From Parcubacteria group bacterium GW2011_GWA2_43_11 (GTDB lineage Bacteria > Patescibacteriota > Minisyncoccia > Phycocordibacterales > UBA12088), in the NCBI GenBank assembly GCA_000998805.1, contig LCFC01000002.1, forward strand, positions 5,784 to 69,783: a stretch of DNA of 64,000 bases, given 5' to 3'. This document shows, piece after piece, positions 3,531-62,780 of the stretch. A model generated the notes under the pieces. That model was given only the letters and a program-made list of their open reading frames with translations. It made no database searches and was not told where the DNA came from. Within the stretch, counting starts at the first letter, position 1; each line of letters opens with the position of its first letter. A program made the position numbers and the translations under genes.

Positions 3531-5171
3531 CTAATTATGCTTCTCCTCTTTGGACGGAACAGATTTTTCTTCGCAGACAGGGAGCTCAACAGTAAATGTA
3601 CTACCCTTCCCCACCCCTTCCGACTCAACGTTTATCCAGCCCTCATGCGCCTTCATGATTTCTCTGGCAATGTAGAGCCCCAGACCTGTACCTAGCACAT
3701 TTGCATCATTTGCATTTGATGCACGGTTAAACTTTTGGAACAAGTTTTGAATTTCTTCTGATGCTATTCCTATTCCCGTATCTTTAATTTTAACCAGCAT
3801 TTTATGTTCCGGATCCAAAGTTGTAACTGAAATCATTATTGACCCTGTCTGCGTATACTTAATTGAATTATCAATGAGGTTTGAAAAAATTTGTTTCATT
3901 TTTCCTTCGTCAACTTTCACAAGATAATTTTTTTTATTATCACACGTCATGTGTAGCGAAAGACCTTTTTCTTCCGCTACGACACGAAGTTCCTCGATAA
4001 CTGTTTCAAGTATTTTGCAAATATTTTGCGGAACCATGTTGTATATCATACGACCTTGCTCAATTCGTGTAATATTGAGGAAGTCGTCCACCATGATACC
4101 GATTCGTTGGCCTGATTCAAGAATTCGGTGTATTGGTTCGAATAGAGTCGCAGGCACTTCACCATACGTGCCGTCGCTCACGAGAGAAGCATATCCTTTT
4201 ATTGCAGCTATCGGGCTCCGCAACTGATGTGAGGCTATAGAAACAAAATCGGTTTTTTGTTTGTCGAGTTCACGTAATCGAGCATTTGCATTTGCCAAAT
4301 AGCGCGCAAGTTTTTCTCCTTTTTGCCTGCTCTGAATTTCCTCTCGAACATTTTTTGTGACCAGAAAACCAAGAAAAACAATTACAATAAAAACAAGACC
4401 ATTAACTACTTGCAAAACAGGTGTATCAGCAATAAAAACCTGTATAAAAGACGCAACAACAACAAGTCCTATAAAAACATTCATTGCTACCACTTTTAGC
4501 TCGAACAAGTTGTGTCGAAACATCGCGTACATAAGAATTGTTGTAGCAAAGAAACTTAAAGAATAGGTAACTAAAGAACTATTTACATTATAGGCAGGAA
4601 GAAATCCACTTATTGCAACTAATTCATTTGCAAAGAGAACAAAAAATATGAGTATATGTTGTATTCGTTTTGGATGAGAAGTCTCGTTTCGAAAGAGAGT
4701 AAGGATGTCAAATAATACAATGGTGGAAAAAAAACCAAAATATACTAAATAAACATGATGCAATATCCTAGCCTGAGAATGACAACCATTCGAAAAATGA
4801 TTCAATCCATCAATAAAATATGGTGACCAAACAAAAAACCAAAAAATCACCATCAGAGTGTATGCCAATATCACTAATGATTTTCTCTTCTTATTTTCTG
4901 AATAAATACTAGAAAAATGAAAAATGACTGCAGGCACTGCAATAGCAAAAAAGTAGATAACCCTATCAACCATCACTGCAAATTCTGCATTCTCACAGTT
5001 ATTAATCATGAAAGTAGTTAAAAATAACCACATAGTGAGCGCAAATGTAAACAACGCAAAAAATCTTGCTTGGGGTAACTTCCAACCTCTAAATAAAATT
5101 ACTACTCCAGCGAAGGATGTGAACACTCCTGTGACAAATGGGAACAAATAAGGATAGGTATCAAAAAACAT
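3531..5171 (-). CDS. Membrane sensor histidine kinase (multi-TM N-terminus, HisKA + HATPase_c)
   Basis: 546 aa. The hydrophobic N-terminal half is followed by the H-box FVSIASHQLRSPIAAIKGY, the N-box NLIDNSIKYT, and the G-boxes DTGIGI and GTGLGL. No response regulator is adjacent in the window. Confidence 0.85.
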   Translation of the reverse strand: MFFDTYPYLFPFVTGVFTSFAGVVILFRGWKLPQARFFALFTFALTMWLFLTTFMINNCENAEFAVMVDRVIYFFAIAVPAVIFHFSSIYSENKKRKSLVILAYTLMVIFWFFVWSPYFIDGLNHFSNGCHSQARILHHVYLVYFGFFSTIVLFDILTLFRNETSHPKRIQHILIFFVLFANELVAISGFLPAYNVNSSLVTYSLSFFATTILMYAMFRHNLFELKVVAMNVFIGLVVVASFIQVFIADTPVLQVVNGLVFIVIVFLGFLVTKNVREEIQSRQKGEKLARYLANANARLRELDKQKTDFVSIASHQLRSPIAAIKGYASLVSDGTYGEVPATLFEPIHRILESGQRIGIMVDDFLNITRIEQGRMIYNMVPQNICKILETVIEELRVVAEEKGLSLHMTCDNKKNYLVKVDEGKMKQIFSNLIDNSIKYTQTGSIMISVTTLDPEHKMLVKIKDTGIGIASEEIQNLFQKFNRASNANDANVLGTGLGLYIAREIMKAHEGWINVESEGVGKGSTFTVELPVCEEKSVPSKEEKHN

Positions 5172-14203: not shown

Positions 14204-14728
14204 ATGATTGGGCAGAACAATTATGCATTTATTGATAGTCAAAATGTGAATTTAAGCATTCGTCAGCTTGGGTGGCGAATTGACTGGTGCCGTTTTCGTA
14301 TATATTTGAAGGAAAAGTACGGTGTTTCAAAAGCATTTCTTTTTCTTGGTTACGTTAGTAAAAATCAAGATTTGTATACCCGACTTCAAGAAGCAGGCTT
14401 TATTTGTATATTTAAACCAACTTTAGAGTACAAGGATGGGACCACCAAAGGCAACTGTGATGCTGAACTTGTCCTTCAGGTTATGAAGGAGTTTTTAAAT
14501 TTTAACAAAGCAATTATCGTCTCTGGAGATGGTGATTTTTATTGTCTTGCAAAGCATTTACATGAAGAGAATAAACTTGGAATACTTCTCATACCAAATC
14601 GTAAACGTTTCTCCGCACTTTTAAAATGGGATATTTTCCGCAAATATCTGCGATTTATGAATGACCTTGAGAGTAAGCTTGCGTATATAAAGAAAGGGCC
14701 CCGTAAGGACGAAACCTTACAGGGCTGA
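14204..14728 (+). CDS. NYN-domain (LabA/DUF88-like, PIN-fold) putative nuclease
   Basis: 174 aa with an N-terminal YAFIDSQN and a central SGDGDFYCL, typical of NYN/LabA-like domains. Confidence 0.7.
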   Translation: MIGQNNYAFIDSQNVNLSIRQLGWRIDWCRFRIYLKEKYGVSKAFLFLGYVSKNQDLYTRLQEAGFICIFKPTLEYKDGTTKGNCDAELVLQVMKEFLNFNKAIIVSGDGDFYCLAKHLHEENKLGILLIPNRKRFSALLKWDIFRKYLRFMNDLESKLAYIKKGPRKDETLQG

Positions 14729-16137: not shown

Positions 16138-16386
16138 AGGATTACGCAAACGGATACAGTTCGACTTGTCCTCCGTAGCTCCCGGAGGAGCGGAGGAGGA
16201 GGAAAACGAACAAAATGGAGCGCATCCCGCCACAGGCGGGATAGACGACATTTTGTGAAGTTTGACGACGAAATGCAACCTAATTTTTAACGAACGCAGG
16301 GAGTACCTGCGCGTGCGCATGGTTCTTGTGCCCTGTGGGTATAAAAATGGGAACGCTCTTGCGGTACGCCGATTGTATGAGTTCTA
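16138..16386 (+). repeat. R-family element copy R2 (TIR - F - core A - C with an extra 36-nt insert - degenerate TIR), about 249 nt
   Basis: Opens with AGGATTACGCAAACGG and contains ACAAAATGGAGCGCATCCCGCCACAGGCGGGATAGACGACATTTTGTGAAGTTTGACGACG. The right end CGCCGATTGTATGAGTTC is a decayed TIR that abuts the umuD-like stop codon. Confidence 0.85.
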
Positions 16387-17001: not shown

Positions 17002-17176
17002 AGGATTTACGCAAACGGGTGCAGTTCGACTTGTCCGCCGTAGCTCTCGGAGGAACGAAGGTGGAGGCGTCCAAGCAAAATGGAATGAGTTGTATTAACA
17101 ATACTACAAGAGACATTTTTGACGGGCAACGCCTGCCTGCGCAGACAGGATGAAATTCACCCGTTTTCGTAAGTCG
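17002..17176 (+). repeat. R-family element copy R3 (TIR - F - core B - extra hairpin - TIR), 175 nt
   Basis: AGGATTTACGCAAACGGG...CCCGTTTTCGTAAGTCGT termini. The core is GCAAAATGGAATGAGTTGTATTAACAATACTACAAGAGACATTTTTG. It ends 4 nt from the lexA stop codon. Confidence 0.88.
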
Positions 17177-23495: not shown

Positions 23496-23520
23496 ATGAA
23501 GAAGGTTGAACCTTCTTCAT
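23496..23520. repeat. REP-like palindrome, copy 1
   Basis: ATGAAGAAGGTTGAACCTTCTTCAT. The arms ATGAAGAAGG/CCTTCTTCAT pair perfectly. It lies about 45 nt upstream of the RAYT-like gene. Confidence 0.85.
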
Positions 23521-23565: not shown

Positions 23566-24303
23566 ATGCAACGCGAACCGATTGAGACAGACGGTATTTA
23601 TCACATTTATAATCGTGGTGTTGATAAACGAATTACTTTTGATGATGACGATGAGCATAGATATTTTATTCATTTCTTATACACTCTAAATGATTCGAAA
23701 AACACTTCTACTAATATTAGGAGGGATTTTCTATCAATAACAAGATCTAACAATTATAAAACTGCCACTAATGAAGAAGGTTCAACCTTCTTCATTAGTA
23801 AACCTAAAAGATATAAAAGAGACATGTTGGTCGATATATATGCTTTTGTATTAATGCCAAATCATTACCATCTACTTCTCAAACAAAAAGTAGACAACGG
23901 AGTTTCAAAATTTATGCAGAAGTTAGGTACTGGGTATACCATGATGTTCAATGAAAAACACGAACGTTCAGGTTCCTTGTTTCAGGGTCGATATAAAAGT
24001 AAACACATCTTAAGTGATGAACAGCTGAGATATATCACGCATTACATACATCTTAACCCTCTTGGAAAAAATAACTTATTAAATCTAGAAGAGAGTGTAG
24101 AATATTTAAAAAAATATAAATGGAGTAGCTTCCCTGACTATGTTGAAATTAAGAATTTCCCATCAGTTACTTCTCGAGATTTTATTTTTTCTCTTTTTGA
24201 AGATAAGAATAAATATTTAAAGAGCATCAGTTCAGTACTTGAAAAAAATGACCTTTTGTCACATGTTGATTCAAAAGACTGTATTGATTACAGCGACTCT
24301 TAA
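23566..24303 (+). CDS. REP-associated tyrosine transposase-like protein (RAYT / IS200-like HUH-Y1, COG1943 type)
   Basis: YHIYNRG N-terminal motif, the HUH motif in LMPNHYHLLL, GRYKSK, and a C-terminal Tyr helix YITHYIHLNP. The ATG at 23566 is used because the ORF-track start is a TTG. The gene is flanked by REP-like palindromes. Confidence 0.8.
   Translation: MQREPIETDGIYHIYNRGVDKRITFDDDDEHRYFIHFLYTLNDSKNTSTNIRRDFLSITRSNNYKTATNEEGSTFFISKPKRYKRDMLVDIYAFVLMPNHYHLLLKQKVDNGVSKFMQKLGTGYTMMFNEKHERSGSLFQGRYKSKHILSDEQLRYITHYIHLNPLGKNNLLNLEESVEYLKKYKWSSFPDYVEIKNFPSVTSRDFIFSLFEDKNKYLKSISSVLEKNDLLSHVDSKDCIDYSDS
23771..23795. repeat. REP-like palindrome, copy 2, in-frame inside the RAYT-like CDS
   Basis: ATGAAGAAGGTTCAACCTTCTTCAT. 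It encodes NEEGSTFFI within the linker between the YHIYNRG and HUH motifs. Confidence 0.85.
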
Positions 24304-24307
24304 GATT

Positions 24308-25573
24308 TTAAACAGAAGAGAATGAAGAAGGTTGAACCTTCTTCATGTTTTGGGTGGAATGAGAAAGAATGAGGTCACGGTAGACGAACGCGGAGGGGCG
24401 GATGGTGCGCTCGAGGGTGTCGTAGTTTACCTCTACGAGACCGAACCGTTTGTCAAAACCGTGCGCCCATTCATAGTTATCAAGCAAAGACCAATACATA
24501 AAACCCCGAACATCAGCACCGTTTTTTATTGCTTTACCAATACCACCTACTGTTTTTCTAATATAGTCCGCTCGAAAAGCATCTTTTGCGTCTGCACAAC
24601 CACACTCCTCGACGTACACAGGTTTATTATATCGTTGTACTTCCATTATGGCATCGTAAATACCTTCAGGTCGCAAGTCCCATCCCATATCTGTCTTTGG
24701 ATAGTTCGTTTTGCTACCAAAGTCAGTGTAAAAATAATAATTCAAACCAATACTGTCTGAGTTTTTATATATCTTTTTCAAATACCTATGGGTCATATTC
24801 CACATCTGGAATTTTGCCACAAGTTTATAAAAGGGATTCCCGTGAGCATTAAAATAATGCACTTGAAACACTACGGTTACATGTATATGAGGTGCAATCT
24901 CTTTAATCGCACTATACGCAGTGTTGTGTGCACGCGCCAAAACATTCGCAAGTGTAAAAAATTTAATTATTTCCCCCCAATCTGTAGTCGAGTTCTTACT
25001 CAATTCCTTATCATTTGGTATTCGGGCCAATGCAATCAATGGAAAACGTTGAAACGGAGGGAATGTCCCGCGTACCCACCCGTTTATAACTGTCGAATAC
25101 GGTTCATTCAGTGTTGTGAAGTGTGTAGCCAAGTCTGACAAGCGAGAAACAACATATGCACAATACCGTGCAAATATTTCTGGAAAATCCTTGTGCTCAA
25201 TACCACCTTTCGCATCTAGCCAACTAGGAATCGTCCAATGCCACAATGTCACACTTGGCTCAAGATTTCTTTCTCTTAGCGCTCTCAAAACACTTCTGTA
25301 ATGTTCTATTTCCCTATCATCAAACTTCCCTTCCTCGGGCTCAATGCGTGACCACTCTATAGAAAATCTATGTGCGTTGTGTCCGAGAGACTTTGCAATA
25401 TCAAAATCTTGCTCGTAGCGATTGTAGTGGTCGCACGCCTTCCCACACACAGGCACTTTGCCTTCACGAGCGCTCTTCGCCCAGTCATTGTTTTCAATTC
25501 CTCCTTCTACTTGATAGGCAGATGTAGCTGCGCCCCACAGAAACGTATCTGGAAAGACTTTTTTTTCTTGCAT
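24308..25573 (-). CDS. GH1 beta-glucosidase
   Basis: FLWGAATSAYQVEGG, TLNEP (acid/base) and YVEECG (nucleophile region). The ATG at 25573 (MQEKKVFPDTF) is preferred over the ORF-track start at 25603. The last residues (MKKVQPSSFSSV) are encoded by REP copy 3. Confidence 0.9.
   Translation of the reverse strand: MQEKKVFPDTFLWGAATSAYQVEGGIENNDWAKSAREGKVPVCGKACDHYNRYEQDFDIAKSLGHNAHRFSIEWSRIEPEEGKFDDREIEHYRSVLRALRERNLEPSVTLWHWTIPSWLDAKGGIEHKDFPEIFARYCAYVVSRLSDLATHFTTLNEPYSTVINGWVRGTFPPFQRFPLIALARIPNDKELSKNSTTDWGEIIKFFTLANVLARAHNTAYSAIKEIAPHIHVTVVFQVHYFNAHGNPFYKLVAKFQMWNMTHRYLKKIYKNSDSIGLNYYFYTDFGSKTNYPKTDMGWDLRPEGIYDAIMEVQRYNKPVYVEECGCADAKDAFRADYIRKTVGGIGKAIKNGADVRGFMYWSLLDNYEWAHGFDKRFGLVEVNYDTLERTIRPSAFVYRDLILSHSTQNMKKVQPSSFSSV
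24322..24346. repeat. REP-like palindrome, copy 3 (forms the 3' end of the GH1 CDS)
   Basis: ATGAAGAAGGTTGAACCTTCTTCAT, identical to copy 1. Confidence 0.85.
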
Positions 25574-25630: not shown

Positions 25631-25706
25631 CCTTTAAAACAGACCGTCAACCCTTAGGTCAACGTGTCAAACCACACCACTGTGGCTGACAAAAGACAAA
25701 AAGTGT

Positions 25707-25731
25707 ATGAGTAAGGTTGAACCTTCCTCAT
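25707..25731. repeat. REP-like palindrome, copy 4 (variant)
   Basis: ATGAGTAAGGTTGAACCTTCCTCAT. One arm change is compensated (A>G with T>C) and one is not. Confidence 0.75.
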
Positions 25732-25749
25732 GATGCCGAACGAAGGGGG

Positions 25750-30252: not shown

Positions 30253-30374
30253 GGGACTTATGCAAACGGATGCAGTTCGAGACGCCCTAGCAAAATGGAA
30301 CAAGTTGTATGAACAATACTACGAGAGACATTTTGTGCAGGGCAACGATGAAATGCGCCGTTTGCATAAGTCCC
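30253..30374 (+). repeat. R-family element copy R6 (TIR - core B - TIR), 122 nt, with a perfectly paired, doubly compensated TIR
   Basis: GGGACTTATGCAAACGG...CCGTTTGCATAAGTCCC termini. It fills the uvrA-uvrC spacer, lying 1 nt from the uvrA stop and 10 nt from the uvrC start. Confidence 0.92.
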
Positions 30375-38738: not shown

Positions 38739-39911
38739 ATGAAGATACTACCTTTTAGTACTGAAACTTTCTTCAAAAAGGCAGTTAACGTAGCGGAATG
38801 CTACGGTTTCTCAAATGTTGATGATCTTCGCAAAAAAGCGACCGCAAAAGGTACGACTCTTCTTGGGCTACAAAAACACAAAAGTGAGCACGAAGAATTT
38901 GCCCATCACGTACTCGCAGATGTCTTTAAACACTACTCAAGTTCGTGTGATCTAAAACAAAAAAAGCCTTTAATGTTTTACACACCATCTACCGTCTCAC
39001 CAGCATCGACACCTAGTGTGCGCATCAGTGCCCTTACCTTAAATACTGTTGGTACAAATGATCCGCTTGCTGAAATTGTACTTTTGAAAAGTGCGACAAG
39101 TATTTTACGTGAACTTGGTATAAAGAAATTCAGCTTACGTATTAACAGTATTGGTGACAGCGATTCTTCGGTACGCTTTTTGCGTGAAGCGACGTTACGT
39201 ATACGAAACCGTATGCATGAACTACCTGTCGAACTCTCCAACAGTATGCGCGCAAACCCAGGAGCAGTGTTTGCGCAATTATACAGTGAAAAACACCCTC
39301 TCGCTGAGGAGCTTCCAAGCCCTATTGAGTACCTCACTACCCCAAGTAGAAAGTATTTTAAGGAAGTCTTGGAACTACTTGGAAACGCTGACATACCTTT
39401 TGAACTTTCTGATAAATTATATGCAAATCCAAACATTTACTCTCACACTATTTTTGAAATAGTTGAAATAAACGAAAATGAAGCAATGCCACCTACAGTA
39501 CTCGCACGAGGCGGGAGGTACGATGAGCTTACGCGACCGTATGTACGAGGGACACTACCTTCAACCGGTATAGTGATAGCAATGCGCACCAACGATAAGA
39601 ATTCTAAATTTGGAAGACCTCGACGACGTAAAGCTAATGCATGTTTGGTGCACATTGGAAAAGAAGCTCGCATACGCAGTATTAACATTATAGAAACTTT
39701 TAGAGCACGAAAGATTCCGATTGAACAATGTCTCTATTTTGAACGATTTTCTGAACAAATGGCTTACGCTGAAGCCCAACATACAAAATACATACTCATT
39801 ATTGGGCAACAAGAAGCACGGGACAATGTAGTCTTGATGCGAAATACTAATGATCACTCTCAACAAACAGTGTCAATCGACCGTCTTCCTGAGCTATTAG
39901 GTATGAAATAA
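38739..39911 (+). CDS. Histidyl-tRNA synthetase-like protein with a degenerate class II motif 2
   Basis: 390 aa. RGGRYDEL (HisB-like) and a clear C-terminal HisRS-type anticodon-binding domain are present. The FRYE-PQ-GR motif-2 region is replaced by YTPSTVSPASTPSVR. Confidence 0.6.
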   Translation: MKILPFSTETFFKKAVNVAECYGFSNVDDLRKKATAKGTTLLGLQKHKSEHEEFAHHVLADVFKHYSSSCDLKQKKPLMFYTPSTVSPASTPSVRISALTLNTVGTNDPLAEIVLLKSATSILRELGIKKFSLRINSIGDSDSSVRFLREATLRIRNRMHELPVELSNSMRANPGAVFAQLYSEKHPLAEELPSPIEYLTTPSRKYFKEVLELLGNADIPFELSDKLYANPNIYSHTIFEIVEINENEAMPPTVLARGGRYDELTRPYVRGTLPSTGIVIAMRTNDKNSKFGRPRRRKANACLVHIGKEARIRSINIIETFRARKIPIEQCLYFERFSEQMAYAEAQHTKYILIIGQQEARDNVVLMRNTNDHSQQTVSIDRLPELLGMK

Positions 39912-40084
39912 GCGGTGGCAACTTTGACCTTACGTATAAGATTCAGCTCTACCAAGAGGGGCTTGCCCCGTAGTAGAAATGACGATGCGCTTCGCGCGCT
40001 CGACCCATGGTTGAGCCCCGTACTGAAGCTTTGCTCTAGTACAGGGCGAGCTTCGTCAATTTTCACTACGGGGCTTGCCCGTAA
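39912..40084 (+). repeat. S-family structured element copy S1
   Basis: CCCCGTAGTAGAAATGACG...CGTCAATTTTCACTACGGGG forms a long closing helix. An inner hairpin at 40016-40046 is the reverse complement of module E of R8. The element starts immediately after the upstream stop codon with GCGGTG. Confidence 0.75.
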
Positions 40085-40110
40085 TAACACCCTGTGGTAC
40101 GATGTGCCAC

Positions 40111-40353
40111 ATGATAAACGTAGAAGTTGAGCGACATGGAAACGAGAACGTTGGCGGTTTGATGCGCCGTTTTTCGCGTAAGATGCAGAGCAGTGGCGTG
40201 GTTCGTCGTGTTCGCGGTTTGCGCTATCACCAACGAAATCTTTCAGATTCAAAACAAAAAAAGGAAGCACTTAACCGTCTTGCACGTACTGAAAAATACA
40301 TGGATTTGTTCAAAGAAGGTCGAAAGATGCCTGAAAAAGCAAAGCATCGTTAA
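40111..40353 (+). CDS. rpsU: 30S ribosomal protein S21
   Basis: MINVEVERHGNENVGGLMRRFSRKMQSSGVVRRVRGLRYHQR... The ATG at 40111 is preferred over the ORF-track start at 40075. Confidence 0.9.
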   Translation: MINVEVERHGNENVGGLMRRFSRKMQSSGVVRRVRGLRYHQRNLSDSKQKKEALNRLARTEKYMDLFKEGRKMPEKAKHR

Positions 40354-40364
40354 ACAACAATGAT

Positions 40365-40580
40365 AGGACTTACGCAAACGGATGCGACCTAATTTTCAAG
40401 GAGTGAAACGACTATGAAAATGGAAATGCCCTTGCGGTACAGTTCTAGGAAAGCGAACAAAATGGAGCGAGTCCCGCCACGGGCGGGATGAGAGATATTT
40501 TGTGAAGTTTGACAACGAGAATGCGACCAATTTTTCTTACGACTGTAAGGAGTTAGAAAAATGAAGTGCCCTCGTGGTGT
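40365..40580 (+). repeat. R-family element copy R7 (TIR - C - core A - D), right TIR missing
   Basis: AGGACTTACGCAAACGG, then module C with a covarying stem (AATTTTCA/TATGAAAAT), core A and module D. Homology to R5 stops at ...GTGGTG (40580), inside the ybeY ORF. Confidence 0.85.
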
Positions 40581-40853
40581 ATAGGAGATACTACCGCAAA
40601 AAAATTAAACAAAACGTATAGAAACAAAACTTCGCCTGCAAACATACTCACCTTCCCTCTTGCGAAAAATGAGGCAGAGATTTTTCTCAATGTAGCCGGC
40701 ATCAAAAGAGAAGCCCACCGATTTGATTTCACACCAAGTCAACATGGACGTTTTTTGCTTATCCACGGTTGTTTGCATTTGAAAGGACACACGCACGGGA
40801 GTACAATGGAACAAGCGGAGGAACGAGCACTCAAAAAATTTGCTATCCGCTGA
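40566..40853 (+). CDS. ybeY: Endoribonuclease YbeY, N-terminally short; the 5' end overlaps R7
   Basis: LNKTYRNKTSPANILTFP and the zinc motif HGCLHLKGHTHG are present. At 95 aa from a GTG start, it lacks about 35-40 N-terminal residues compared with typical YbeY. It may be truncated or a pseudogene. Confidence 0.65.
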   Translation: MPSWCIGDTTAKKLNKTYRNKTSPANILTFPLAKNEAEIFLNVAGIKREAHRFDFTPSQHGRFLLIHGCLHLKGHTHGSTMEQAEERALKKFAIR

Positions 40854-40961
40854 TTCAGCCCCTTGCCTTTAGAGAAAACGTACTGTGCTTTAGGAGACAA
40901 GCACCCTACGTGCCTTTTTTTGGTACTCACCCACATATACCATTGTTCAAATCACATAAAC

Positions 40962-42122
40962 ATGGCACAAAAAATAGCAGTTGGCATCGATGTTGGCACG
41001 TATCAAATCAAGGTCGTGGTAGCTTCGCAAGATTCTCGAGAACAACGGGCTAAAATAATAGGCACGGGTTTTGCGCAATCACGCGGCATCAGGCACGGGT
41101 ACGTGGTTAACAGGCAAGATATTGCAAAAATGCTACAACTTGCTGTACGTGAAGCAGAAAAATCCTCAGGAGTTGCCATACGGCGCGCATACTTGTCTGT
41201 CGGAGGTGTCGGTCTCGAAGAATTCCGTTCCCGGGCAGAACTCCTTGTGTCACGCGCAGACAGTGAGGTTACCGAGCTCGATTTAAAAAACATTATCGAA
41301 GAAAGTGAACGTAAAATAAGTTCACGCTTACTCAACAGGAAAGTGATACACGCGATACCCTTAGCTTATCGGCTAGATGGTGAAAGACTCATGGGTTCAC
41401 CAATTGGAATGAAAGGAGTTAAGTTAGAATTGGACGCCTTATTTCTGACAGCTCTTGAGCAACATTTAAATGATTTAATTGCAGCTGTTGAAGACGTGGG
41501 AGTTTCTGTTATTGATGTTATGGCGAGCCCTCTTGCAGGAAGTTTTGTAACCCTTACCAAGGCTCAAAAAATAGCTGGCGTCGTACTTGCAAACATTGGT
41601 GCCGAAACTCTTTCGGTAGCAGTATTTGAAAATGACGTGCCAATTTCGGTAAAAGTCTTCCCAATGGGTTCGACTGACATAACTCACGATATTGCACTAG
41701 GACTTAAGATATCTATAGAAGACGCAGAGCAAGCAAAACGTGGTGCATTAATTAATTCAGTGACTTCAAAAAAACAGCTTGACACTATTATTGCCCATCG
41801 CCTTTCAAACATTTTTGCATTGATTGAAGCCCACCTGAAACGACTTGGGAAAAACGGGTTACTCCCCGCTGGTGTTGTTATTTCTGGTGGGGGTTCCGGA
41901 GTCACTACTATTGAAGACATTGCCCGAGTTGTTTTAAAAATACCTTCCAAAAAAGCGTCACTTATGCTTGAAGGGAAGTCAAAAGTTAAGAACAGTACAT
42001 GGGCGGTCGCTTATGGACTCTGCATATGGGGCCTTACAAACGATATTGAGTCAAGTAGTTTTTCTACCATCAAAGAAAACGCAAGCGGTTTCATTACTTG
42101 GCTCAAACAATTTCTCCCATAA
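40962..42122 (+). CDS. ftsA: Cell division protein FtsA
   Basis: Actin-like ATPase with IAVGIDVGTYQIKVVVA and VVISGGGS. The ATG at 40962 is preferred over the ORF-track start at 40863. Confidence 0.9.
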   Translation: MAQKIAVGIDVGTYQIKVVVASQDSREQRAKIIGTGFAQSRGIRHGYVVNRQDIAKMLQLAVREAEKSSGVAIRRAYLSVGGVGLEEFRSRAELLVSRADSEVTELDLKNIIEESERKISSRLLNRKVIHAIPLAYRLDGERLMGSPIGMKGVKLELDALFLTALEQHLNDLIAAVEDVGVSVIDVMASPLAGSFVTLTKAQKIAGVVLANIGAETLSVAVFENDVPISVKVFPMGSTDITHDIALGLKISIEDAEQAKRGALINSVTSKKQLDTIIAHRLSNIFALIEAHLKRLGKNGLLPAGVVISGGGSGVTTIEDIARVVLKIPSKKASLMLEGKSKVKNSTWAVAYGLCIWGLTNDIESSSFSTIKENASGFITWLKQFLP

Positions 42123-42243
42123 ATCCTTTATTCTAGAGCTATTTTAGGAATATAAAACAAAGCTACAAACGAGACTTTGTGTCAACGGTTTCGCTTTTTT
42201 GTGCTTCTGATATGATGACAGAACTTAACCTAACGCTTGGTTT

Positions 42244-43494
42244 ATGCCACAAGTACAAACAGATATAGAATCATTTGCAAGAATACGAGTAGTAGGAATC
42301 GGTGGTTCAGGCAACAATGCCATAAACCACATGATTAACTCGAACGTAAAAGGAGTTGATTTCATAACTATTAATACAGACGCTCAGGATCTTCAAAATT
42401 CAAAAGCGAAAAAGAAAGTTCATATTGGAAAAAACCTAACACGAGGTCTGGGTGCTGGTGGAAACCCTGACTCAGGGAAACGGGCAGCTGAGGAAACTCA
42501 GGAAGAAATTCTTGAGACTCTTCGTGACTCTGACATGGTGTTTATATCCGGTGGACTTGGAGGTGGTACAGGAACAGGTGCCGCTCCTATCGTCGCACGT
42601 CTAGCAAAGGAGGCTGGCGCGCTTACAGTAGGTATAGTAACAAAACCTTTCTCGTTTGAAGGACAACAGAGAATGCGAGCCGCAGAAGAGGGTCTTGCAG
42701 CACTCAAGGAAGAGGTGGATGCTATCATCGTGATTCCTAATGACCGACTACTTGCTATTGTTGACCGCGATACGAGCGTACTTAATGCATTTGCACTTTG
42801 TGATGATGTACTACGACAAGCAGTCGAGGGTATTTCTGACCTCATCATTACCCCTGGTATTGTTAACGTTGACTTTGCAGATATCAAATCAGTTATGCAA
42901 AATGCCGGCTCGGCACTCATGGGTATTGGACTTGCTTCAGGAGAAAAACGTGCAGAAGAAGCGGCACTAAAAGCTATCAATTCCCCACTACTTGAAGTAT
43001 CTATTTCTGGAGCTCGTGGTGTCCTTTTCGCTATCGCTGGGGGTGAAGATCTAGGAATGCTAGAAATACAAGATGCTGCACGAATAATCACTGAAACTGT
43101 TGATCCAAACGCACGAGTTATCTTCGGAGCATTTCGTGACGACAAACTCAAAAAAGATGAGCTTAAAGTTACTGTTATTGCTACGGGATTTACTGAAGGT
43201 GAAATTACAGAACATGCAAGTTCCCTCTTCTCTATTGGTGGGGGGCTCTCCCAAAAAGAAGAGCTTACACCATCAGCAATACACAACACGATTGCTGATG
43301 TACGTGCAGCAAACAATAATGCAGTTCGGACGACACCGGCGTTTCGACCTAAGCCTGAAATAAAATCAATACAAAAAGAAAGAAAGATTCCCGCGGACAC
43401 AAAAGAGGACTATGTAAAGGATATCAAAGATGATGAAGAAGATGACAACGAATGGGGTATTCCACCTTTTTTACGACGCTCAAAAATAAAATAG
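42244..43494 (+). CDS. ftsZ: Cell division protein FtsZ
   Basis: GIGGSGNNAINHM, the GGGTGTGAAP tubulin signature, and a C-terminal conserved peptide (IPPFLRR). Confidence 0.98.
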   Translation: MPQVQTDIESFARIRVVGIGGSGNNAINHMINSNVKGVDFITINTDAQDLQNSKAKKKVHIGKNLTRGLGAGGNPDSGKRAAEETQEEILETLRDSDMVFISGGLGGGTGTGAAPIVARLAKEAGALTVGIVTKPFSFEGQQRMRAAEEGLAALKEEVDAIIVIPNDRLLAIVDRDTSVLNAFALCDDVLRQAVEGISDLIITPGIVNVDFADIKSVMQNAGSALMGIGLASGEKRAEEAALKAINSPLLEVSISGARGVLFAIAGGEDLGMLEIQDAARIITETVDPNARVIFGAFRDDKLKKDELKVTVIATGFTEGEITEHASSLFSIGGGLSQKEELTPSAIHNTIADVRAANNNAVRTTPAFRPKPEIKSIQKERKIPADTKEDYVKDIKDDEEDDNEWGIPPFLRRSKIK

Positions 43495-43565
43495 AACTTT
43501 TGAATCTACCCCGATAACACTTTACTATTCCGCTCCACTACACATGTCTTCTTGAAAGCATTAAA

Positions 43566-43662
43566 AGTAGTGAGTAAAGAGTAGTGAGCCGGGAGTAAAT
43601 AATTAAAAAGCTCGCCACCGTGGTGGCGTTAACTCTAGGCTCTCGACTCATTACTCACTACT
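43566..43662. repeat. 97-nt nested-helix element carrying three AGTAGTGAG motifs
   Basis: AGTAGTGAGTAA (43566-43577) pairs with TTACTCACTACT (43651-43662). Inner pairs are GAGCC/GGCTC and the palindrome CGCCACC-GT-GGTGGCG. A related string, CTCGGACTCATTACTCA, is found at 55555-55571. Confidence 0.5.
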
Positions 43663-43816
43663 ATACTATCTGAAATAACTGGTTGCGCTCATACTTGAAG
43701 TTGGTTATTAGATAGACTGAGTCCCATAAGTGCTCTTAAGTATATTTCTGGTATAGTATACGAGCGATGAGAAATTATTGCTCGTATCTATTTTTACATA
43801 ATCACCTACTTGTTCT

Positions 43817-44572
43817 ATGAAATTTGATTTAGTTATCATTGGAGGAGGGCCTGCTGCTATAGCAGGAGGAGTGTACGCTGCACGAAAGCGACTCAAAACA
43901 CTTGTTATTGCAAAAGAGTTTGGTGGGCAAAGTATTGTCTCATCGGAAATCTTTAACTGGATAGGAACCCCTTCAATACGAGGTGAAGACTTAGCGAAAT
44001 CTCTTAAAAATCACCTTGAACAATACAAGGGTGAGTATATTACTATTGAGGAAGGGTTACTCGTGACCAAAGTAGCTGGTACACAGGGAGATTTTGCTAT
44101 AACCACCAACACAGAGAAGGTGTTTACATGTTCTATGGTTCTTGTAGCCTCAGGTGCAACCCGTAGAAGACTTAAGGTCTCAGGGACTATGGAATATGAC
44201 CAAAAGGGACTTACCTATTGTGCCACATGTGACGGTCCACTATTTTCCGGAATGGATGTGGTAGTTGTTGGTGGTGGAAATGCCGGTTTTGAATCTGCAT
44301 CCCAACTTCTTGCTTACGCCAAAAGTGTCACACTTCTTGATAATGGTGACATGTTTAAAGCAGAACCAATTACGATTGAGAAGGTACTTTCACGAAAAAA
44401 TATGAAGGCGATACTTCATGCCGAAACAACAGAGATTCTTGGAGACAAGATGGTTACGGGTATTAAATATAAAGATACTAAAACAGGAGAAGAACAGGTA
44501 CTACCTGTACAAGGAATATTTATTGAAATCGGAGTGGTCCCTTACGGAAGTAGATGCAGTGAAAGCACTTGA
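43817..44572 (+). pseudogene. trxB: Thioredoxin-disulfide reductase, C-terminally truncated
   Basis: GGGPAAIAGGVYAARK (FAD), the CATCDG redox centre and VVGGGNAGFESA (NADPH) are present. The ORF stops at 251 aa, just after GIFIEIG, so the final FAD-binding GD motif region (about 60-70 aa) is absent. R8 follows 52 nt later. Confidence 0.6.
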
Positions 44573-44624
44573 AGACATATACGTACACTTCCACAAATAG
44601 ATACTTGAGAAGAGAGATCGTCCA

Positions 44625-44879
44625 AGACCTACGCAAATGGATGCGACCAATTTTTCTTATGATCCGCCAGCGTGCGGAGAGTTAGAAAAATGAAGTACTC
44701 CTGCTCGCCCCGTATACAGCTATGCTGTTGTACTGGGGTGGTGCAATTCAAGGCGCCAGAACAAAATAGAATGAGTTGTATGAGTAATACTACGAGAGAT
44801 ATTTTGCGACGGGCCCTGTACTAGAGCGAAGCTTCAGTACGGGGCGGGCAACGATGAAGTGCGCCGTTTGCGTAGGTCA
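44625..44879 (+). repeat. R-family element copy R8 (TIR - D with nested hairpin - core B with nested hairpin E - TIR), 255 nt
   Basis: AGACCTACGCAAATGG...CCGTTTGCGTAGGTC termini. Nested hairpins lie at 44708-44738 and 44814-44844, the latter flanked by a duplicated CGGG. Confidence 0.9.
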
Positions 44880-44911
44880 TGTTACAGGCGCTGTTGTTGC
44901 AACTCCTTTCT

Positions 44912-45442
44912 TTACTCTTTATGGTTCGGCAAAGTCAGAGCAACACAGTTCCAAAAGCGTACTGAATGATTCATCTCTCTTAGGTGGCAAAGCTCGTGAA
45001 CTAAAAGGTAATCTTGTAAATGACTAGGTAAAAAAATAATCCTATAATCGAAATTCAAATTTCCTTTTTCTGAGCAACTTCCCCATCTGCTTGTATTCAC
45101 ACGTATGGATACACGATGGTACGTGTATCCATACACTCTATTCAGCTCTGTCAATCTAAGTTGCACAAACTTTCGTGCGGCTTCTTTGTGCTTCGTGTAG
45201 TGTTTTTTTCTTACATGAGTAGATACCGCTTGCGGGTACTTTTGGAGCACTGCCAAGAGCCAACTCTTTTTTTCAAGTATAAATTTTTCCGCTCCTCTTA
45301 ATGAAATCCAGTAAGGAACTGTGAGTGTTATTCTCCCCTCCCTCTGCACAGCAAGCGAATAGCTTTTTTGTTTCCTTCTCTTCCGAAGCGTGTACTCAAT
45401 AGTTTGATTGTCGATTACAAAGGTTCGTACTTGTTGCATCAA
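44912..45442 (-). CDS. YgjP-like (DUF45) M48-family metallopeptidase
   Basis: 176 aa with the HExxH motif in LLVHELCHLREMNHS. Confidence 0.75.
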   Translation of the reverse strand: MMQQVRTFVIDNQTIEYTLRKRRKQKSYSLAVQREGRITLTVPYWISLRGAEKFILEKKSWLLAVLQKYPQAVSTHVRKKHYTKHKEAARKFVQLRLTELNRVYGYTYHRVSIRVNTSRWGSCSEKGNLNFDYRIIFLPSHLQDYLLVHELCHLREMNHSVRFWNCVALTLPNHKE

Positions 45443-53434: not shown

Positions 53435-53745
53435 AGTGATTGTATTAGACTTATAAATTATTCCAGTGTATTTTATTTGATCGCCTACAGACAGAATTAT
53501 TTATATTGTAAAACAAAAAGAATGAAAGTTGAGTGAGGGTTTGAATCTAAGTATCCCAATCAATATAGAACAGCACCAAGCGACACTTGATGCTGTACGT
53601 TTTTTATATACATGGATTTCTCGTCAAACGTAAACAAAGGATACAAAATAACCGATTGCAAGCAATCGGTGTTTTGTTACGAGTCTGATTACAAAATATA
53701 AAAGACCTTTATTTTTCAGAATATTCATAGTACAATCGCTTGCAA

Positions 53746-56947: not shown

Positions 56948-57069
56948 AGGACTTACGCAAACGGGTGAAATTCAAGGCGCCCGAACAAAATAGAACGAGT
57001 TGTATGAATAATACTACGAGAGATATTTTGTGACGGGCAACGATGAAGTACACCGTTTCCGTAAGTCCT
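56948..57069 (+). repeat. R-family element copy R9 (TIR - core B - TIR), 122 nt
   Basis: AGGACTTACGCAAACGG...CCGTTTCCGTAAGTCCT termini. The core is ACAAAATAGAACGAGTTGTATGAATAATACTACGAGAGATATTTTGT. It fills the ftsI-murF spacer and ends 3 nt from the ftsI stop. Confidence 0.92.
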
Positions 57070-62526: not shown

Positions 62527-62780
62527 CGGTGTTAAAAGTTGAAAGTTGAATGTTAAAAGCCCCGTAGTAGAAATTGACGGTGCACTTCGAGCATCGAGCC
62601 ATAGTGGGCTCGACTTCGTCAAGTTTCACTACAGAGGTCTACCCTGTACCGACTGGTATTGGGGGTAGAAGTACTCGATTTTTTTTATGTTCACAGTACG
62701 TCTTCGGGCTAACAATGCCGTTTGCTCGCTCGCCACTTTTTACCTTATGAACTTTATAACTTTAAAACTTTCAAATTGTC
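62527..62780 (+). repeat. S-family structured element copy S2; fills the whole convergent relA-parB spacer
   Basis: CCCCGTAGTAGAAATTGACGG...CTTCGTCAAGTTTCACTACAG is homologous to S1. A/T-rich imperfect inverted arms (62531-62559 vs 62749-62778) carry AAGTTGAAAGTT/AACTTTCAAATT motifs. An internal T8 run lies at 62676-62683. Confidence 0.7.

Follow-up and report, generated by a model that had tools for sequence, protein, structure and literature searches.

Tagged REPs, which fall into GTAG and CGTC super-families, can be nested in longer palindromes and also occur inside replication and repair genes (PMC3733652). They are thought to be handled by RAYT enzymes of the Y1/HUH kind acting on single-stranded DNA (PMC3733652, PMC2817692, PMC3116915), and PMC2817692 puts their usual copy number above 100 per genome. 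RPE-4 and RPE-6 have been equated with CGTC REPs (PMC3733652). Since nesting and genic copies are already described for REPs, the behaviour that we report here is of a known kind. CPR bacteria have tiny genomes and are generally considered poor in mobile DNA. A literature search found no paper tying CPR to REP, MITE, RAYT or palindromic elements, and a search for the sequence of the hairpin studied here, entered as a string, also gave nothing relevant.

The DNA analysed, a stretch of 64,000 nucleotides hereafter called the window, belongs to a groundwater Parcubacteria (CPR/Patescibacteria) population; seven public contigs, including GCA_000997835.1, match the region at 99.8–100%, and the aligned part of its TrxR/AhpF-like protein (43817-44572) shows 100% identity with a 'Parcubacteria group bacterium GW2011_GWC2_42_11' protein. 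The window carries ten R elements of about 119–255 nt, built from two alternative cores (A and B) and optional modules. Their inverted ends, GGACTTACGCAAACGG, are 16–17 bp long (18 matches to the end motif versus 0.3 expected), and TA lies on either side of most copies. Among all loci fetched, the end motif was found only in this species and its close relatives. The R elements have the inverted ends, the short duplication and the presence or absence in relatives by which MITEs are recognised. L140, from a related species whose HisRS-like protein is 91% identical, is without R7 (3880-4040), yet has R copies at sites that are empty in the window, and L139, from a relative at 95%, has an additional R between ftsZ and the TrxR-like gene. 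Such differences in position and content between relatives are as expected of MITE-like elements. Judged by sequence, R elements are apparently MITE-like and confined to the window's lineage.

Table 1. Positions of the R, S and hairpin features, in window coordinates unless another locus is named.
Feature	Position	Strand	Remarks
R8, composite MITE-like R element	44625..44879	+	18-nt inverted repeat, 89%; module families D2, D3, D13
R8, left inverted repeat	44625-44640		
R8, module D	~44644-44703		
R8, core B	44739-44813		
R8, right inverted repeat	44864-44879		
H1, 31-nt hairpin (44814-44844) with flanks	44810..44848	- (family's canonical strand)	CGGG direct repeats 44810-44813 and 44845-44848
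H2 unit, tag CTCG (44704-44707) and 31-nt hairpin (44708-44738)	44704..44738	+	flanking duplication absent
S1, 108-nt long-stem palindromic element (39966-40073)	39962..40077	+	CTTG flanks 39962-39965 and 40074-40077
Second H1 copy (40016-40046), nested in S1	40012..40050	+	flanks TGAG 40012-40015 and CGAG 40047-40050
S2, S-type element without nested hairpin	62560..62637	+	paralogous empty site between 62613/62614
R9, simple core-B element	56949..57068	+	H1 site empty between 57037/57038; single CGGG 57034-57037
R6, simple core-B element	30254..30373	+	H1 site likewise empty
Extra 36 nt in R2 module C	16306..16341	+	single-copy, weak fold, outside the hairpin family
18-nt palindrome CCTGCCTGCGCAGACAGG, R3 only	17132..17149	.	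a few bases from R8's H1 position
Short solo hairpin with the same ends, CCCCGTAAGGACGAAACCTTACAGGG	14699..14724	+	3' end of NYN-domain gene
HisRS-like/rpsU spacer, window	39962-40077		
HisRS-like/rpsU spacer, L001	4819-4845		
HisRS-like/rpsU spacer, L139	7160-7248		
HisRS-like/rpsU spacer, L140	3535-3650		
tRNA-adjoining locus, L085	3497-3590		
tRNA-adjoining locus, L092	4200-4290		
tRNA-adjoining locus, L094	2780-2900		
tRNA-adjoining locus, L095	1590-1665		

R8 lies in the spacer of the convergent TrxR-like and YgjP-like genes and contains two 31-nt hairpins, H1 and H2 (Table 1). The element, including both hairpins, is identical across seven independent public contigs of the same population (NCBI, ENA and JGI assemblies), indicating that it is not an assembly artefact. 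The segment 44810-44848 reads CGGG-CCCTGTACTAGAGCGAAGCTTCAGTACGGGG-CGGG, and R9 continues uninterrupted across the corresponding site as GACGGGCAACGATGAAG (also given as GACGGGCAACG); an earlier sequence-only reading, which had described a 31-nt hairpin bounded by a duplicated CGGG, was thus accurate. When up to three mismatches were allowed, the H1 31-mer was found at two sites of the window, 44814-44844 (+) and 40016-40046 (-, one mismatch), with 0 expected from 100 shuffles, and the latter is the inverted copy inside S1 that the same reading had reported. H2 (44708-44738) has one copy in the window and, as had also been noticed, interrupts module D of R8: together with the four preceding bases it makes 35 nt extra relative to module D of R5 and R7.

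With each read on its proper strand, H1 and H2 have a common architecture, consisting of an outer stem CCCCGTAC/GTACGGGG, an inner AGC/GCT stem and a 3-nt loop; H1-type copies end in GTACAGGG. A pattern for this architecture matched three copies in the window (H1, H2 and the S1 copy) and no others. The same three were the sole strong matches in the window to a covariance model trained on 53 hairpin copies from other genomes, with scores of 54.9 bits for H2 (E 2e-11), 32.4 bits for H1 (E 8e-6) and 29.7 bits for the S1 copy (E 4e-5). As single-stranded DNA the hairpins fold at -5.6 to -7.2 kcal/mol (z -2.6 to -3.8). H1 and H2 are inverted, 75 nt apart, and pair together in the R8 fold; they are only distantly alike, and core B also occurs without them. 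An Rfam search of the window returned only a tRNA at gathering score, and for 39900-45000 nothing relevant appeared at E up to 5.

When six core-B elements were aligned, five of them, two from related species, showed a clean 35-nt gap at the H1 position. In the window, R9 and R6 have no H1, and the same holds for an R copy in L140 and for the element that occupies the R8 site in L139, a simple core-B element of 122 nt that is without H1, H2 and module D. A locus from a third lineage (L008) was considered as an empty R8 site and rejected, since a solo R end was found there. S1 itself (fold -38.2 kcal/mol, z -6.9) is present at the same place in L140, between the HisRS-like gene and rpsU, with the hairpin absent, and the window is exactly 35 nt longer at this point (the hairpin plus 4 nt). 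The empty S1 site of L140 reads GGTCGAG^CATCG, given also as the orthologous ...CCCATGGTCGAG^CATCGTCA..., and the window has GGT-TGAG-hairpin-CGAG-CTTCG. In the S2 region (62560-62664), a short hairpin of 23 nt, CCCTGTACCGACTGGTATTGGGG, comes after S2 and corresponds to the family's outer stem only.

At both H1 insertions with an identified empty site, the hairpin is flanked by a 4-nt direct repeat (CGGG/CGGG and TGAG/CGAG) that is a single copy when the site is empty, and H1-type repeats in another genome are TATA/TATA (L029 and L064). A 4-nt duplication throughout the family found no support: among the matches listed it was seen in 3 of 113 copies, against 0.6 expected, and H2 has none. The idea that short duplications flank the hairpins therefore held for H1-type copies, with 4 nt, and failed for H2 and for the family at large.

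Hairpins also lie in frame inside the LeuRS, DnaX, UvrB and RecG genes of other CPR genomes, for which homologues without the insert were found, and they are translated as (D/N)PSTRA(K/E)LGTGH or PRTE..SGTG. The DnaX gene of L088 has a 36-nt insert relative to that of L049, with near-identical flanks. L014 and L118 each carry one insert in UvrB, at different sites, and the RecG insert is in L102; the LeuRS inserts of L115 and L034 share one site and that of L055 occupies another. The identities of the insert-bearing genes were confirmed by Pfam. Within the window's own genes, the covariance model detected no in-frame family copies. Pairs of empty and filled sites, which the sequence-only reading had proposed to look for, thus exist at S1 in L140, at S2, in the four core-B elements named above and in the LeuRS, DnaX, UvrB and RecG homologues. 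We conclude that the hairpins were gained as discrete units, of 31 + 4 nt or of 36 nt where the frame is kept, at otherwise conserved sites.

A 21-base search pattern, comprising 20 fixed bases and one purine-only position, was run on a species-representative genome collection; about two chance matches were estimated in its 596 Gb, assuming uniform base composition. The pattern matched at least 114 stretches of other genomes, the flanks of which are unrelated, so that copies elsewhere, the other thing to be looked for, do exist. Among the matches listed, nearly all are Patescibacteria/CPR by record title and represent many classes, with labels that include Saccharibacteria, Paceibacterota and Uhr-, Nomura-, Moran-, Gottesman-, Komeili-, Kerfeld-, Harrison- and Zambryski-bacteria. 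A few matched bins carry the record-title labels Gammaproteobacteria, Elusimicrobia, Nitrospira and Methanosarcinales. H2 differs from a Harrisonbacteria copy (L056) by one mismatch, and the first 27 nt of the S1 copy are identical to a Paceibacterota copy. In viral contigs (IMG/VR) the pattern had no matches. The unrelated-flank copies and the empty/filled pairs together support the view that small hairpins insert into larger elements, and the distribution of the hairpins suggests that they are mobile.

The hairpin is an imperfect palindrome of 31 nt with 13 base pairs, which lies within the REP size of 20–40 bp. Conservation at the 20 pattern-fixed positions is by construction, because the copies were ascertained with that pattern. 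At the stem positions left free by the pattern, the bases pair in 67 of 67 and 63 of 67 unique variants among the matches listed, through three to four pair types each, whereas shuffles gave means of 39.6 and 30.4 and maxima of 47 and 44. Compensatory changes altered 43 cells on both sides compared with 9.3 in shuffles (none of 500 shuffles reached 43), and by pair counting 98% of cells are paired, versus at most 53% when the partners were slid. Between the two stems lies a base that the pattern also left free; in 66 of 67 variants among the matches listed it is an unpaired T, and a second bulged T is found in 38 of the 67.

Outside the stem, the hairpin is preceded by a 5' tag, C-Y-T-G, with C in 75, Y in 86, T in 75 and G in 95 of the 118 copies among the matches listed. 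These four bases read CCTG in 32 of the copies, CTTG in 13 and CTCG in 11, and GTAG in only 5, and a T directly follows the hairpin at its 3' side in 86 of the 118. The canonical strand coincides with the C-rich strand at 52 of 80 loci with |GC skew| >=0.03 (p ~0.01; loci L013-L126, among the matches listed). Most copies in other genomes are single and dispersed and, among the matches listed, most are intergenic; the window has three strong copies in 64 kb. A CRISPR or TIGR array was rejected, as the copies are dispersed singly and not in tandem, whereas TIGR units form 36-nt tandem arrays adjoining Tas genes (PMC12045711). As a separate observation, 39% of the unique variants among the matches listed have no stop in any of the six frames, compared with 16% of shuffles.

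Two further contexts were seen in other genomes. Copies of a subfamily, GTATAAAGC...GCTTTTGTAC, make up the middle of a longer palindromic repeat, itself conserved, which reads CCCCTCCTCAGTCTCG-hairpin-TGAAGGAGGGG, at L017, L040, L087, L120, L086, L100 (bin labelled Gammaproteobacteria) and at L019, L076 (Komeilibacteria); nesting in bigger palindromes thus recurs in other genomes. Elsewhere in CPR the hairpin adjoins tRNA genes and lies between partial duplicates of the tRNA 3' or 5' end (21 nt in L085 and L092, ~20 nt in L094), and in L092, L094 and L095 the motif GTGCGGGG...TATTTA adjoins it. The possibility that hairpins interrupt tRNA genes was rejected: their removal restored no tRNA, and partial tRNA duplications flank them instead.

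Differences between strains and relatives were found at R7 and S1. R7, at 40366-40579 in the window, has neither module C nor the apical part of core A in L001 (5132-5260), and in L139 (7539-7674) it is a simple core-A element with another apical hairpin, CTGTACCCGTCGTACAG. The hairpins do not explain why the larger modules, C and D, are found in R7 of some strains and missing from others. The 36 extra nt of R2 are an indel, as had been described, and they could not be established as a hairpin element, the segment having a fold z of -1.5 and no covariance-model match in addition to being single-copy. The R3 palindrome, of the perfect type, is a different nested mini-palindrome within an R element.

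Two alleles of the S1 site coexist in the natural population, a long one (S1 plus hairpin) in the window, L127 and L131 and a short one, carrying a different 24-nt hairpin, in five contigs; L139 has yet another combination. The HisRS-like/rpsU spacer therefore shows four hairpin contents among close relatives, with two alleles in one population, and every unit is preceded by CTTG or CTGCG. This spacer is a hot spot. Strain polymorphism was also sought at R2-R6, R9, R10 and S2, all of which are fixed in the sampled contigs. None of the population's sampled contigs varies at H1, at H2 or at most R elements, and no ongoing movement was thus observed in these contigs.

Several assembly differences were recorded. 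Compared with all public contigs of the same population, the window is missing 131 nt at 40579/40580, where the right inverted end of R7 and ~32 ybeY codons are gone; at 44543-44552, TACGGAAGTA replaces 150 nt of the TrxR-like gene and causes an early ORF end; and 120 nt are missing at 53672/53673. GCA_000997835.1 in turn is missing 40 nt where R7 and ybeY join. Assembly or gap artefacts at repeats, or else differences between strains, probably account for these deletions. Inside R9, the contig L143 (3346-3621) changes to another neighbourhood, with DHFR and thymidylate synthase genes; the genome is rearranged there, or the assembly is chimeric at the repeat. An additional palindrome, ATGAAGAAGGTT(G/C)AACCTTCTTCAT, has four copies (23496-23520, 23767-23799, 24317-24351 and 25706-25732) around the genes at 23.5–25.7 kb; these are unrelated to the R elements and the hairpin family and could be terminators or operators.

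Taking these data together, we consider it probable, with good confidence, that H1 and H2 are copies of a tiny REP/RPE-like insertional element, present CPR-wide, that landed independently in the MITE-like R8 and in S1. The same arrangement might instead have arisen with no insertion, by recombination or gene conversion between R variants or by precise deletion through replication slippage. Whole modules do differ among strains in R7 (L001 is without module C and part of core A), several assemblies have deletions at R ends and H1 is flanked by short direct repeats, as slippage needs. However, one 31-mer is shared by R8 and S1, which are unrelated hosts and hold it in opposite orientations, more than 100 other genomes carry the hairpin between unrelated flanks, in-frame copies occupy differing sites of homologous genes, and the five of six core-B elements that miss H1 include copies in two related species. 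The presence of the unit in unrelated hosts and genomes disfavours recombination among R variants, and we regard an origin without insertion as very unlikely.

A motif selected for a host function, for instance termination in both directions, mRNA stabilisation, RNase action or protein binding, with spread as a secondary matter, is also unlikely, even though compensatory changes and the conserved bulged T keep the structure across deep lineages, most copies are intergenic and R8 itself lies between convergent genes. REPs have such secondary roles, according to PMC3733652 and PMC2817692. Against such a function, the hairpin shows no preferred orientation towards its neighbouring genes (tandem contexts gave 11:11 and 13:11), copies lie between divergent genes and inside essential ORFs, and the placement of copies would need an insertion process anyway. 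A T-run after the hairpin is absent, with T at +1 only; on this ground, together with the unbiased orientation and the copies between divergent genes and in ORFs, an intrinsic terminator was rejected. The three local deletions of the window relative to public contigs might raise the suspicion of an assembly artefact, or of adapter or vector contamination, yet seven contigs from NCBI, ENA and JGI assemblies have exactly the same R8, and the family varies with compensatory changes and is present in many unrelated studies, which makes this exceedingly improbable.

If H1 and H2 are indeed inserted copies, the insertional element would comprise about 31 nt plus a 4-nt leader, with a stem CCCCGTAC...GTAC(T)GGGG and an interior made up of the AGC/GCT inner stem, the 3-nt loop and bulged T residues; its host in R8 would be a MITE-like element with GGACTTACGCAAACGG inverted ends and the usual TA flanks. 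A protein that acts in trans and recognises one strand of the hairpin may move the units. A candidate is an HUH/Y1 single-strand DNA enzyme of the RAYT or IS200/IS605 type, to judge by the modest strand bias and by the REP-like layout, in which the hairpin has an adjacent conserved tetranucleotide and a conserved bulged T. Larger hairpins may be preferred targets because single strands would be exposed there, and landing within other hairpins would fit a single-strand DNA enzyme. Y1 enzymes leave no target duplication, whereas duplications are left by DDE enzymes. The 4-nt repeats of H1-type copies would suit a staggered-cut (DDE-type) enzyme better, and neither enzyme type fits all of the data, since H1 has 4-nt repeats and the main family has none. 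H2 conforms to the tag model. There are two insertion modes, or else the repeats represent target microhomology.

We searched for the enzyme in the loci at hand. With an IS200 TnpA query, tblastn gave nothing below E = 1 in the window and ~0.9 Mb of hairpin-bearing loci. When 848 ORFs within 1.5 kb of hairpins were clustered, no family was found in more than 6 of the 114 loci listed, at ~8 kb sampled per genome. A Pfam scan of 63 window proteins showed housekeeping functions only and no transposase, among 25 of 120 families listed.

A structure-conserved element of 31 nt shared across CPR would serve as a CPR sequence marker and would give a handle on a DNA-processing enzyme common to CPR. It would also be a source of intergenic repeat diversity and of small insertions in essential proteins. 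With orthologous empty and filled sites that do and do not show the 4-nt repeats, the insertion chemistry of REP-like elements becomes testable.

How does the hairpin family compare with described elements? Like tagged REPs (PMC3733652, PMC2817692, PMC3116915), it is an imperfect palindrome of 20–40 nt, one end of which bears a conserved tetranucleotide outside the pairing, is found singly and perhaps as inverted pairs, with some copies nested or genic, and shares with CGTC REPs that a transposase is not known. Unlike in tagged REPs, the tag is C-Y-T-G, neither GTAG nor CGTC, the stem has conserved T bulges, and one consensus extends across CPR lineages of class or phylum rank and not a species or genus; moreover, copies in the window are few, H1-type copies have 4-nt flanking repeats, and a RAYT was not found in the loci sampled. 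The ends of IS200/IS605 elements and their miniature derivatives (PATEs) resemble the family in the imperfect hairpin, the extrahelical T, the reading of one strand and the strand bias, as well as in a fixed tetranucleotide 5' of the element and, for the main hairpin family, the absence of duplication. They differ in that the hairpin is single and not one of two distinct ends, TnpA was not found in the loci sampled and H1 copies have flanking duplications.

Among DDE MITEs (Correia/NEMIS and IS630-type, TA-flanked), the R elements fit in size, inverted ends, TA flanks and presence or absence, and H1 resembles two back-to-back inverted ends with a 4-nt duplication; however, a 31-nt hairpin is far under the usual MITE size, the main family is without duplication and a parent insertion sequence was not seen. 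Rickettsia palindromic elements are alike as palindromic selfish DNA tolerated in frame in coding genes of reduced genomes, and are set apart, by description, through unrelated sequence and host and through the insert length, which here is 36 nt or 12 residues. RPE-1 measures ~100–150 nt. In Nostoc, Elhai et al. (2008) reportedly described SDR, mobile-looking repeats of 21–27 nt nested in other repeats, including MITE-like elements. Going by that description, SDR are alike as small nested repeats, unlike in their cyanobacterial host and their sequences.

We tentatively raise the possibility, with somewhat more doubt than conviction, that the hairpins represent a third kind of tagged mini-palindrome, marked by C-Y-T-G and a T-bulged stem, spread CPR-wide by a putative enzyme and giving rise to nested repeats and to 12-residue loops in essential proteins. 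If this were true, the element would have been shared by ancient retention or horizontal spread among genomes otherwise almost devoid of mobile DNA. It would have produced nested 'Russian-doll' repeats and loops in replication, repair and translation proteins, and the H1 subtype would be the smallest known unit leaving a target-site duplication. Relative to REPs, the features that differ are the tag, the T-bulged stem, the superphylum-wide consensus and the 4-nt repeats of one subtype.
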